A stretch of 64,000 nt of DNA, from contig CM000150.2 in assembly GCA_000004695.1 (NCBI GenBank), positions 1,696,001-1,760,000 of the forward strand. The letters run 5' to 3'. The DNA comes from Dictyostelium discoideum. Taxonomy: Eukaryota. Positions 61,207 to 63,396 of the stretch are shown here, piece by piece (the first letter of the stretch is position 1; every line of letters starts with the position of its first letter). The notes beneath the pieces are model-generated. The model searched no databases, was not told where the DNA came from, and was given only the letters and a program-made list of their open reading frames with translations. A program made the translations under genes and the position numbers.

Positions 61207-61821
61207 CTAATAGAATAAAAGAAAAAAAATATTATTATTATTATTATTATTATTATTATTATTATTATTATTATTATTATTATTATTATTATTATTATTA
61301 TTATTATTATTATTAGTTGGAGTGTATGGTTTTGGTTTAGGTGGTGGTGGTGGTGGTGTTGGTAGTGGTTTTGATGCTGGTTTTGATAGTGGTTTTGATG
61401 GTGGTTTTGATGGTGGTTTTGATAGTGGTGGAGTTGATAGTGGTAGCGTTGGTATTGATGGTGTTGGTATTGATGGTGTTGATGGTGATATTGGTGGCGT
61501 TAATGGTGTTGGTATTAATGGTATTGATGGTATTAATGGTTTTGATGATGTTGGTATTGATGGTGTTGGTATTGATGGTGTTGATGGTGTTGATGGTGTT
61601 GATTGTGATATTGGTGGCGTTAATGGTGTTAATAGTGATGATGATGGGGACAAAAAAGAAGCTAATCCGGCTGTTGGTAAAGGAAATTCAAATGATTCGT
61701 TTAAAGTATTTTGAGATTGGTGGTAGTGGTGCGATTGAAATACTATTTTGGTTGCATCAGTTACGTCTTTTCTATCTGTTATAAACGATTCATGGTTTAG
61801 TTTTATTCTTTTTGCATTCAC
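61207..61821 (-). CDS. Hypothetical protein with an N-terminal NAKRIK…ESFEFPL motif and a Pro/Ser/Thr-rich (SKPP)n tail. This is the left, intact member of a divergent paralogue pair.
   Basis: Product: MNAKRIKLNHESFITDRKDVTDATKIVFQSHHYHQSQNTLNESFEFPLPTAGLASFLSPSSSLLTPLTPPISQSTP…SKPPSKPPSKPLSKPASKPLPTPPPPPP…(N)n. The same motif recurs 1.5 times in inverted orientation at 62915-63396. Confidence 0.4.
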   Translation of the reverse strand: MNAKRIKLNHESFITDRKDVTDATKIVFQSHHYHQSQNTLNESFEFPLPTAGLASFLSPSSSLLTPLTPPISQSTPSTPSTPSIPTPSIPTSSKPLIPSIPLIPTPLTPPISPSTPSIPTPSIPTLPLSTPPLSKPPSKPPSKPLSKPASKPLPTPPPPPPKPKPYTPTNNNNNNNNNNNNNNNNNNNNNNNNNNNNIFFLLFY

Positions 61822-61879
61822 TATATCATCTGGATTTATTAAATTGTTTTTTTGTGGTGTGATATTTTTAACTGGCGTT

Positions 61880-62095
61880 GTTGTAGTGGTTGCTGAGGTT
61901 GTTGTTGTTGGTGTTGGTGTTGTTGGTGTTGGTGTTGTTGGTGTTGTTGTTGTTGTTGTTGGTGTTGGTGTTGTTGTTGTTGTTGTTGTTGTTGTTGTTG
62001 TTGTTGTTGTTGTTGTTGTTGTTGTTGTTGTTGTTGTTGTTGTTGTTGTTGTTGTTGTTGTTGTTGTTGTTGTTGTTGTTGTGGTTGTGGTTGGC
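61880..62095. repeat. (GTT)n microsatellite, about 215 bp
   Basis: Direct observation. It generates the artefactual poly-V and poly-L ORFs at 61748..62146 and 61890..62117. Confidence 0.95.
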
Positions 62096-62384
62096 GTTGA
62101 TTTTTGTATTGTATTAGAGGTGATAGTTGTTGATTGTGCTTGCTAAAAACTTGCTGGAAACTGTGATTGATTATCTTCTAATTTTACTGTTGGAATTGTT
62201 GTGTTCGTTTGGTGGTGATTCATCATTTAAATTTAAAAATGGGAAGGGGATTTTGCCTCTTTCAAAGAATGAACCTAAATATTCAACAAGTAAACTTTAA
62301 ATGATATCAAATATTTACTTTTTTACATAATATTTAAAAAATAGCAAAAGGTTTGTCTGAGTTTACATTGTTATTTCCTTTGGA

Positions 62385-62640
62385 CAACTTTAAGTCGACT
62401 TTCCTCGCTTCCCATCGATGTGCCTCGCTCTGTCTGCTCTGTTGCCAGCCTGGACCTTGACTCGGTCATTATCAACTTACTTTCAATCCTTATGGACTCA
62501 AGGTATGTCGACACCAACGTAAGTGTGGATCAACTCTATGCGTCGTTTTCCCCAATGGTCTTAACAATGCTCTCATCCTCTCCTCTAACGCACCTCAGCA
62601 AGAGGTTATAGATAATCGCAACTAAATCCTGCATACCAGA
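62385..62640. other. GC-rich island of about 250 bp, with local GC above 50% against a genome background of about 22%, carrying an intron-like GTAAGT…polypyrimidine…CAG signature
   Basis: Sequence: ctttcctcgcttcccatcgatgtgcctcgctctgtctgctctgttgccagcctggaccttgactcggtc…caaggtatgtcgacaccaacGTAAGTgtggatcaactctatgcgtcgttttccccaatggtcttaacaatgctctcatcctctcctctaacgcacctCAGcaagagg. The composition and the pyrimidine-tract style are unlike Dictyostelium introns or genes. It matches no snRNA, 5S or tRNA consensus I can recall. Confidence 0.6.
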
Positions 62641-62914
62641 CAATAATATTCAAATCTATTTAAAACTTTTTTTATTTGATAATAATGTTTTTATGGGAGA
62701 TTTTTCTTTTATTTTGAAATTGACTTTTTTTTTTTTTTTTTTTTTTTTTTTTTTTTTTTTCTGAGATTGAAAATTTCAATGTTTTGATAATTTTTTGAAG
62801 AATAAACCATCAATCATTTATTGTTTTTTTTAATTTCAATTTTTAAAATACCTATTAGCAGTTGGATACCAATCAAAAAACAAAAGTCAAAAAATTATCA
62901 AAACACCGAAACAT

Positions 62915-63396
62915 GTAACTGATGCAACCAAAATAGTTTTTCATTCACACCACCACCACCACCACCACCACCAATCGCATAATACTTTCAACAATCACTT
63001 GAATTTCCTTTACCAACAGCCACATTAGCAGATTCATTTAAATCAAACACCACATTATTTTCTTCTCCTTCTTCTTTGTTGCCATCATCATCAACACAAT
63101 CAACACCATTAACACCACCAATATCACAATCAACACCAATTAAAAATATCACACCACAAAAAAACAATTTAATAAATCCATATGATATAGTAAATGCAAA
63201 AAGAATAAAACCAAACCATGAATCATTTATAAAAGATAGAAAAGCCAAAATAGTATTTCAATCACCCCACCAATCTCAAAATACTTTAAATGAATCATTT
63301 GAATTTCCTTTATCAACAGCCACATTAGCAGATTCATTTAAATCAAACACCTCATTATTTTCTAAATCTTTTTTTATTTTATTGTCGGCTTCGTGA
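62915..63396 (+). pseudogene. Right-arm paralogue of the NAKRIK…ESFEFPL protein. It holds 1.5 motif copies with a frameshift in the first copy and no ATG start; likely degenerate.
   Basis: The first copy, VTDATKIVFHSHHHHHHHQSHNTFNNH, shifts frame and hits a stop. The second frame reads SLEFPLPTATLADSFKSNTTLFSSPSSLLPSSSTQSTPLTPPISQSTPIKNITPQKNNLINPYDIVNAKRIKPNHESFIKDRKAKIVFQSPHQSQNTLNESFEFPLSTATLADSFKSNTSLFSKS*. The only in-frame starts are TTG, which are not used in Dictyostelium. Confidence 0.35.

Follow-up and report, generated by a model that had tools for sequence, protein, structure and literature searches.

Part of a low-complexity orphan reading frame, probably duplicated locally and in inverted orientation around the SRP RNA gene of Dictyostelium discoideum

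The window, by which we mean the whole 64-kb stretch of Dictyostelium discoideum nuclear DNA analyzed here, has a GC content of ca. 22%, ranging from ca. 12 to 30% along its length. Toward one end, a signal recognition particle (SRP) RNA gene lies in the spacer between two inverted arms that carry copies of the same protein motif. The features of the locus and its surroundings are as follows (coordinates are those of the window).

61207 to 62142, minus strand: left open reading frame of 311 codons plus stop (stop at 61209-61207), from translation
61594 to 61884, minus strand: left arm, one motif unit plus the SPSSSLLTPLTPPISQSTP linker, from repeat search, tblastn, and alignment
62143 to 62226, minus strand: ATG-ATG and 25 further codons, MMNHHQTNTTIPTVKLEDNQSQFPASF, then an in-frame TAG at 62145-62143, from translation
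62336 to 62349, minus strand: putative Pol III-type terminator, T4 and T6 runs (CC TTTT GCTA TTTTTT), read from the sequence
62352 to 62634, minus strand: Dictyostelium SRP (7SL) RNA gene, full length, 45% GC, from Rfam RF01570
62691 to 62698, minus strand: putative DUSE promoter box, TCCCATAA, read from the sequence
62909 to 63080 (tblastn match, 62876 to 63138), plus strand: right arm, partial first unit (the third motif copy), from tblastn and direct repeats
63126 to 63380, plus strand: right arm, full second unit, inside an ATG-less open frame (62983-63396), from tblastn and alignment
63766 to 63840, plus strand: tRNA-Lys(CUU) gene, from ARAGORN (Rfam tRNA model, 66.9 bits)

The tRNA-Lys(CUU) gene, ca. 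370 nt past the right arm, belongs to the context and lies outside the repeat. Also near the locus is a gene for an OCRL-like 5-phosphatase/RhoGAP, presumably Dd5P4, whose best protein match comes from P. violaceum (83%). Comparison with the D. discoideum assembly GCA_054883475.1 (L001) gave an identity of 99.3 to 99.7% over positions 52426-63357, and the sole difference found within 61101-63357 was a 9-nt change in a poly-T run.

The signal recognition particle is built on SRP RNA as its scaffold. The covariance model of the Dictyostelium family (RF01570) matched the spacer with 308.5 bits (gathering score, 90; E = 2e-91), and all model positions (1 to 283 of 283) aligned at 62352-62634, with posterior probabilities all at “*”. 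These central 283 nt cover the whole model without any difference from the family, while the inverted ORF fragments found here at the flanks are no part of the family definition. No RNA family matched either arm when positions 60500-64000 were searched against Rfam with a relaxed threshold. Pol III terminates at T runs, and the 3' end of the gene is directly followed on the minus strand by TTTT (62349-62346) and then by TTTTTT (62341-62336). Termination at such runs is also stated in PMC7919456. Upstream, the box TCCCATAA begins 64 nt before the first SRP RNA position and fits the published DUSE motif, [AT]CCCA[AT]AA, which many ncRNA genes of Dictyostelium have ca. 60 to 63 bp upstream (PMC3188802, PMC7919456). 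From these features, the gene would be transcribed from the DUSE at ca. -64 and stopped at the T runs. The initial annotation had pointed to a GC island between the arms; the GC-rich block is indeed there, but rather than part of an element it is identified by its match to RF01570 as an ordinary, already known Dictyostelium SRP RNA gene.

The two arms are arranged head-to-head, with the motif on the minus strand in the left arm and on the plus strand in the right one, where a third and partial copy is also found. The left and the full right units (the latter at 63133-63369 in this search) matched each other by tblastn with an E value of 5e-31 and 71% amino acid identity. At the DNA level, the inverted repeat (61661-61884 versus 63126-63329) is 85% identical when gaps are counted and 94.6% identical (192/203) in ungapped columns. 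Relative to the left arm, the full right unit has deletions of 15 and 6 nt, both multiples of three. The partial first right unit (tblastn E value of about 2.6e-14) is spread over two frames: it contains an expanded His run, and ca. eight codons past this run the deletion of 1 nt near 62990 brings about the change of frame. Its homology begins within the unit, at ...VTDATKIVF, and the right copy is therefore 5'-truncated. Two direct repeats, D6 (spaced by 300 nt) and D8 (spaced by 317 nt), reflect the tandem arrangement in this arm, and the right side holds 1.6 units where the left has one; the outer sequences differ. No further motif copy was found by tblastn in the 64-kb window. Most of what had been described at the outset is thus present, namely, the inverted pair of ORFs with a common motif (61594-61884, minus strand, and 63126-63380, plus strand), its three local occurrences, and a right copy with a tandem repeat, a frameshift near a His run, and no in-frame ATG. 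The recurring motif itself is real as well, with a length of roughly 75 codons.

The left frame encodes, in this order, poly-Thr, the motif unit (...PVKNITPQKNNLINPDDIVNAKRIKLNHESFITDRKDVTDATKIVFQSHHYHQSQNTLNESFEFPLPTAGLA...), S/T/P repeats, the (SKPP)n proline-rich tail already noticed in the initial annotation, poly-Pro, and poly-Asn (ca. 28 Asn). It has no stops and a coding log-odds of +0.53 per codon. The same annotation considered this copy intact and provided with an ATG, which does not hold: the 311-codon motif frame (62142-61210) contains no ATG at all, and the only in-frame ones, at 62226 and 62223, are parted from it by the TAG at 62145-62143, 27 codons later. This TAG must also exist in GCA_054883475.1, because it falls in a stretch without substitutions between the assemblies. 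The ATG region follows the SRP RNA gene at a distance of 126 nt downstream, both being on the minus strand. A single in-frame GT..AG pair could bypass the TAG; it spans 45 nt (62187-62143) with a GTAAAA donor and ca. 29% GC by our own count, and looks unlike an intron. By these sequence features, the left frame would be a pseudogene of very recent origin or else an orphan gene that starts in an unconventional way.

Searches for homologues returned very little. The sole match of the motif among 5.8 billion proteins was P0001, which is the right arm itself as modeled ab initio, and a full HMMER read of 1.84 billion representatives again matched P0001 alone. These protein libraries include other dictyostelid genera, in which no homologue of the motif was found; control queries with the OCRL-like neighbor protein and a discoidin-like protein retrieved neither D. 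discoideum nor D. purpureum entries from them. Scans of metagenome and viral contigs for the motif gave no match, and Pfam detected no domain in the sense or antisense product. AlphaFold predicted the motif unit with a pLDDT of 56 and a pTM of 0.15, and thus without a confident fold. The duplicated reading frame appears to be lineage-restricted, with intrinsic disorder and a high content of S, T, P, and N. These searches did not support the small gene family once suggested for the motif: P0001 alone was matched, in libraries without D. discoideum or D. purpureum returns for the controls, and two members intact from ATG to stop are absent, the left one having a TAG after its ATG and the right one being ATG-less, frameshifted, and 5'-truncated.

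A comparison of dN/dS between the copies had been proposed in the initial annotation. Run between the two arms with the Nei-Gojobori method (66 codons), it gave a dN of 0.060 and a dS of 0.161, i.e., a ratio of 0.37 (Fisher P = 0.09), from 15 changes in total, of which 6 were synonymous (3 of them CpG to CpA) and 9 non-synonymous. The ratio may be a hint that at least one of the copies is under some purifying selection, but with so few changes it is not significantly below 1. At all six synonymous differences, the left arm has G, C, or T and the right arm A or T; in five of them, the left nucleotide is G or C (ACG/ACA, GTG/GTA, TCG/TCA twice, and AAC/AAT). The right arm is more AT-rich at every one of these sites, which is consistent with a drift toward AT, its direction being unpolarised.

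Taking all of this together, part of a low-complexity orphan ORF has probably been duplicated here, locally and in inverted orientation, around the known SRP RNA gene. The genome of D. discoideum is rich in simple-sequence-repeat coding tracts that give rise to poly-N, poly-Q, and poly-T proteins. In this locus, ca. 290 nt of a lineage-restricted reading frame would have been copied head-to-head as a local inverted duplicate. The left version would retain the 311-codon frame with its gene-like codon usage, severed by the TAG from its only ATG. The right one would be a dead fragment, 5'-truncated within the unit, partly re-duplicated in tandem (with a period of ca. 300 to 317 nt), frameshifted, and ATG-less. 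The arrangement is probably incidental, having arisen as repeat-rich DNA underwent duplication and slippage, and the SRP RNA gene would simply sit in the unique spacer. Decay on at least one side of the duplication is apparent from these lesions, so that the decayed duplication contemplated in the initial annotation agrees with the truncated, frameshifted, and ATG-less right copy and with a left copy separated from its ATG. Compared with a segmental inverted duplication that carries a truncated pseudogene, the copies are here local and 95% identical, with one of them truncated, frameshifted, and ATG-less, and slippage in His, Thr, and Pro codon repeats could account for their indels, but the spacer holds an essential RNA gene and the “parent” copy has a premature TAG. 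Points against this interpretation are the dN/dS of 0.37, with its hint of purifying selection (P = 0.09, three CpG changes), and the left frame, which is long and gene-like and could be expressed through the 45-nt intron or by readthrough.

This last point leads to a reading that we consider rather doubtful, in which the left ORF would be a functional D. discoideum-restricted gene for a disordered, mucin-like, S/T/P-rich protein and the right arm alone a pseudogene. Translation would start at ATG 62226, with the TAG spliced out by a 45-nt phase-0 mini-intron from GT 62187 to AG 62143. Its 311 stop-free codons, the coding log-odds of +0.53, the in-frame indels of the motif unit, the dN/dS of 0.37, and the existence of a frame-keeping GT..AG pair all favor such a gene, and automated annotation did call a 338-amino-acid product here. 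However, 45 nt is far under the mean intron length of D. discoideum, 146 nt (PMC3188802), the candidate intron is exon-like in GC (ca. 29%, own count) with GTAAAA as donor, and the 338-amino-acid model draws its ATG from within the SRP RNA gene, an artefact. Neither is the dN/dS between the left and right arms significantly below 1, nor did the protein libraries yield a homologue from any other dictyostelid present in them. The coding strand had been regarded as uncertain on the grounds that both strands are open, and it could be asked whether the opposite strand is the true coding one, with conserved hydrophobic ORFs, namely, FLSVINDSWFSFILFAFTISSGFIKLFFCGVIFL in the left arm (plus strand) and its counterpart in the right arm (minus strand). 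The left arm is overlain on the plus strand by ORFs of 130, 147, and 132 amino acids, both strands are indeed open in the repetitive parts, and the antisense ORFs of 132 (61748-62146, plus strand) and 86 (62988-63248, minus strand) amino acids are similar to each other. From the codon layout, the antisense frame and the motif frame have their third positions in common, so that substitution patterns cannot tell them apart; a codon-position substitution test was dropped for this reason, and the coding strand was judged by stop counts and codon-usage log-odds. In the non-repetitive unit, only the motif frame is free of stops in both arms, with log-odds of +0.20 and +0.46 (control exons, +0.36 to +0.66), while all other frames have 2 to 11 stops and negative log-odds. 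Even the best antisense frame is interrupted by 3 stops on the left and 2 on the right, with log-odds of -0.41 and -0.06, and the antisense ORFs are open mainly through GTT and GGT repeats. The coding strand is unambiguous within the non-repetitive motif, where codon usage resembles that of local genes, and coding from the opposite strand is scarcely credible.

The initial annotation also compared the whole structure to a composite element with long terminal inverted repeats. Two inverted arms with ca. 95% substitution identity around a 1-kb spacer with a GC-rich block would suit a composite or non-autonomous mobile element carrying GC-rich cargo; yet the cargo is a full-length SRP RNA gene with its own promoter, the arm ends are ragged, and the arms are unequal (1.6 units on the right versus one on the left). 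Exact, sharp termini are missing, as homology begins and ends within reading frames. At three candidate pairs of arm ends, the longest flanking direct repeat was 0 to 7 nt (chance mean of 5.6 and 95th percentile of 9 nt), i.e., no target-site duplication above chance was found, and the locus has neither a transposase-like ORF nor a Pfam domain nor a second copy in the 64-kb window. DIRS-1 is a Dictyostelium retroelement with inverted terminal repeats, and in it, as in DNA transposons with terminal inverted repeats, two inverted arms likewise bracket an internal segment. In contrast to these, the locus lacks a transposase, reverse transcriptase, or recombinase ORF as well as a target-site duplication, its arm ends are ragged and unequal, it is single-copy in the window, and its internal segment is a host RNA gene. 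Alu and B1, the 7SL-derived SINEs, resemble the locus in containing SRP RNA-related sequence, but the SRP RNA at this locus is complete and comes with a promoter box upstream and a terminator of its own; it is not a truncated A-tailed retro-copy, and the arms have no SRP-like sequence. Judged by these sequence features and by the 64-kb window, the locus is most probably not a mobile element, and we give that reading next to no credence. We consider it extremely improbable, too, that the arms are functional DNA, either as a substrate on which recombination could invert the SRP RNA gene or as a boundary element of this DUSE-driven gene. The geometry would allow it, the gene being flanked on both sides by ca. 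200 nt of inverted sequence with an identity of roughly 95%, but orientation and sequence are here the same in the two assemblies, and the arms resemble decaying coding sequence. Nor is there a conserved architecture to compare, since in P. violaceum and C. fasciculata the orthologue of the neighbor gene has no SRP RNA gene next to it (10 kb were searched around the OCRL-like 5-phosphatase/RhoGAP orthologue in both; the P. violaceum contig ends ca. 1.2 kb downstream).

For a local inverted duplication, as we interpret the locus, the practical value is one of annotation. The ab initio models of GCA_054883475.1 on both sides start inside the SRP RNA gene, the 338-amino-acid model on its sense strand and ACTFIT_008771 (P0001) on its antisense strand, and both should be treated as artefacts or pseudogenes. 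The central feature is an already known housekeeping RNA gene of a fully sequenced model organism, and the arms, as a local duplicate of an orphan frame of low complexity, would be unremarkable and of little biological weight. It seems quite unlikely to us that the left frame is a very young D. discoideum-specific gene, expressed through the 45-nt intron or TAG readthrough, or that the arms occasionally cause the SRP RNA gene to be inverted from one strain to another. Translation of the left frame, if shown, would make it a modest example of a young orphan gene.

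The inverted pair of frames flanks a GC-rich island, in a window where GC content per kilobase ranges from 11 to 41% across 64 kb (mostly about 20%) and which holds long (AAT)n, (CAA)n/(ACA)n, and poly-T tracts. Because ORF tools assume bacterial conventions, frames were derived again by hand. The main features of the locus are as follows.

62352-62634, minus strand: full-length Dictyostelium SRP RNA gene (Rfam RF01570, 308.5 bits, gathering score 90, model positions 1-283 of 283)
62698-62691, minus strand: DUSE box TCCCATAA, 64 nt upstream of the SRP RNA gene
63133-63369, plus strand: right arm, full unit (tblastn E = 5e-31)
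62876-63007 and 62992-63138 (two frames), plus strand: right arm, partial upstream unit (tblastn E = 2.6e-14)
62834-63025 and 62983-63393 (stop 63394-63396), plus strand: right-hand open frames, neither with an ATG
Stop at 61209-61207, minus strand: left arm, in coding order poly-Thr, PVKNITPQKNNLINPDDIVNAKRIKLNHESFITDRKDVTDATKIVFQSHHYHQSQNTLNESFEFPLPTAGLASFLSPSSSLLTPLTPPISQSTP, S/T/P repeats, (SKPP)n, poly-Pro, about 28 Asn, stop

TTTT and TTTTTT runs lie right behind the 3' end of the SRP RNA. Given the full RF01570 match, the DUSE box (a promoter box upstream of many Dictyostelium ncRNA genes), and these T runs, the island is, on sequence grounds, a complete and already known housekeeping RNA gene and not the cargo of an element. 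A relaxed-threshold Rfam scan gave no RNA family match in the arms.

The descriptive core of the initial annotation holds, namely, an inverted pair sharing a motif, a partial third copy, and a right arm with a frameshift and no ATG. At the DNA level, the inverted repeat (61661-61884 versus 63126-63329) is 85% identical with gaps counted and 94.6% (192/203) over ungapped columns. Inside the unit, the motif of roughly 75 codons common to the arms, there are two deletions (15 and 6 nt), both in frame, while a 1-nt indel falls within a repetitive stretch where the alignment starts. The right-hand units stand in tandem with a period of 300 to 317 nt (direct repeats D6 and D8); the partial one starts mid-unit at ...VTDATKIVF (62909), has an expanded His run, and changes frame by a 1-nt deletion near 62990, about 8 codons past that run. 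The right copy is a pseudogene fragment. A 25-nt inverted repeat (I22, 62774-62798 and 62887-62911, 92% complementary, 88-nt spacer), whose right arm adjoins the start of the truncated copy's homology, may reflect chance in AT-rich DNA or the trace of a rearrangement junction.

The coding strand, initially considered uncertain, could be settled on the nonrepetitive unit with a codon log-odds table built from 18 long window ORFs (8971 codons), their own off-frames serving as background. Only the motif frame was free of stops, and only it scored positive (left unit, +0.20; right unit, +0.46; control exons, +0.36 to +0.66), whereas the other five frames were all negative and had 2 to 11 stops. 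ORFs on the opposite strand are open chiefly over GTT and GGT repeats.

The left copy had been described as intact with an ATG. In-frame ATGs do occur at 62226 and 62223, but after 27 codons they run into a TAG (62145-62143), and the 311-codon motif frame downstream has no ATG. Only one GT..AG segment would bypass the TAG in frame (62187-62143), and its splicing seems unlikely, being 45 nt long when D. discoideum introns average 146 nt (PMC3188802) and having about 29% GC (hand count), like exon sequence. In the left copy the frame is still long and its codon usage still like that of genes; this copy is either a pseudogene of recent origin or, distinctly less probably, an orphan gene that starts unconventionally. 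To its left lies a two-exon gene for an uncharacterized 113-aa product (60700-61123, minus strand; MRKKKKKEIIQLL...) in which Pfam found no domain. Between this gene and a 107-aa gene, a unit of roughly 230 nt occurs three times (59901-60127, 60120-60348, and 60383-60609; 90 to 92% identical), each copy with a very long run of T or A at its end.

In a second D. discoideum assembly (GCA_054883475.1), both models flanking the SRP RNA gene start inside it (locus record L001, 8703-9965 and 10001-10814). The 338-aa left model opens with MTESRSRLATEQTERGTSMGSEESRLK, read from the RNA gene's sense strand, and then skips a 246-nt "intron," while the right-arm model P0001 (ACTFIT_008771) starts as MSTPT at 62505, antisense to it, with the frameshifted part spliced out. 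Both are probably ab initio annotation artifacts. The contig of P0001, CM142508.1, aligned to 52426-63357 with 99.3 to 99.7% identity, and over 61101-63357 the sole difference was 9 T in a poly-T run; the match marks the window as D. discoideum nuclear DNA. The 1.57-Mb record ends within the right arm (~63357), just short of long poly-T runs and a tRNA-Lys(CUU) gene (63766-63840), a break that repeats or a tRNA-associated element may have caused. About 30 nt downstream of the tRNA gene is GGGATCGACTCC (~63869-63880), which we take to resemble the external B box of many Dictyostelium tRNA genes. TRE and DGLT retroelements land at tRNA genes in D. discoideum.

The motif was not found elsewhere in the 64-kb window at the protein or DNA level, nor in metagenome and viral contig scans, and its product had no Pfam match. 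A word-indexed search of 5.8 billion proteins retrieved only P0001 ([quoted passage not shown]), as did HMMER, run exhaustively over 1.84 billion representatives with a profile of both units. Control queries of the protein libraries returned Polysphondylium, Heterostelium, Cavenderia, and Acytostelium, so the missing orthologs there are meaningful; they returned nothing from D. discoideum or D. purpureum, so the negatives are uninformative for within-species paralogs. AlphaFold gave the unit low confidence, both per residue (pLDDT 56) and in overall fold (pTM 0.15), with just two very short helices; any protein made from it would be disordered and of low complexity.

Inverted arms around a GC-rich block had suggested a long-terminal-inverted-repeat composite element, a reading that the locus does not support. 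The arms are unequal (one unit on the left versus 1.6 on the right), their ragged edges fall within reading frames, their outer flanks are unrelated, and flanking direct repeats do not exceed chance (longest, ≤7 nt; 95th percentile, 9 nt); Pfam found no domain in any ORF between or near them, and the island is the SRP RNA gene. As for constraint, the single pair of arms gave dN = 0.060 and dS = 0.161 (ratio, 0.37; Nei-Gojobori; Fisher P = 0.09) over 66 aligned codons with 6 synonymous and 9 nonsynonymous changes. Each of the six synonymous differences (61660-61878 versus 63133-63345) is A or T on the right; on the left, five are G or C and one is T. Three of the six are CpG to CpA from left to right. 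This pattern suggests AT-biased drift of the right copy, which accounts for it as well as selection does.

The best explanation is a local head-to-head inverted duplication by which a copy of some 290 nt from a low-complexity, lineage-restricted reading frame came to lie across the SRP RNA gene from its source. First, this right-hand copy would have lost its 5' end; partial tandem reduplication, His-codon expansion, frameshift, and AT drift would have followed, and we infer that the arms lack function. The SRP RNA gene would run independently, through its predicted DUSE box and T-run terminator. The initial observation is real, but its interpretation as an interesting element is not supported; around a central feature that was already known, the arms amount to a commonplace duplication in decay.
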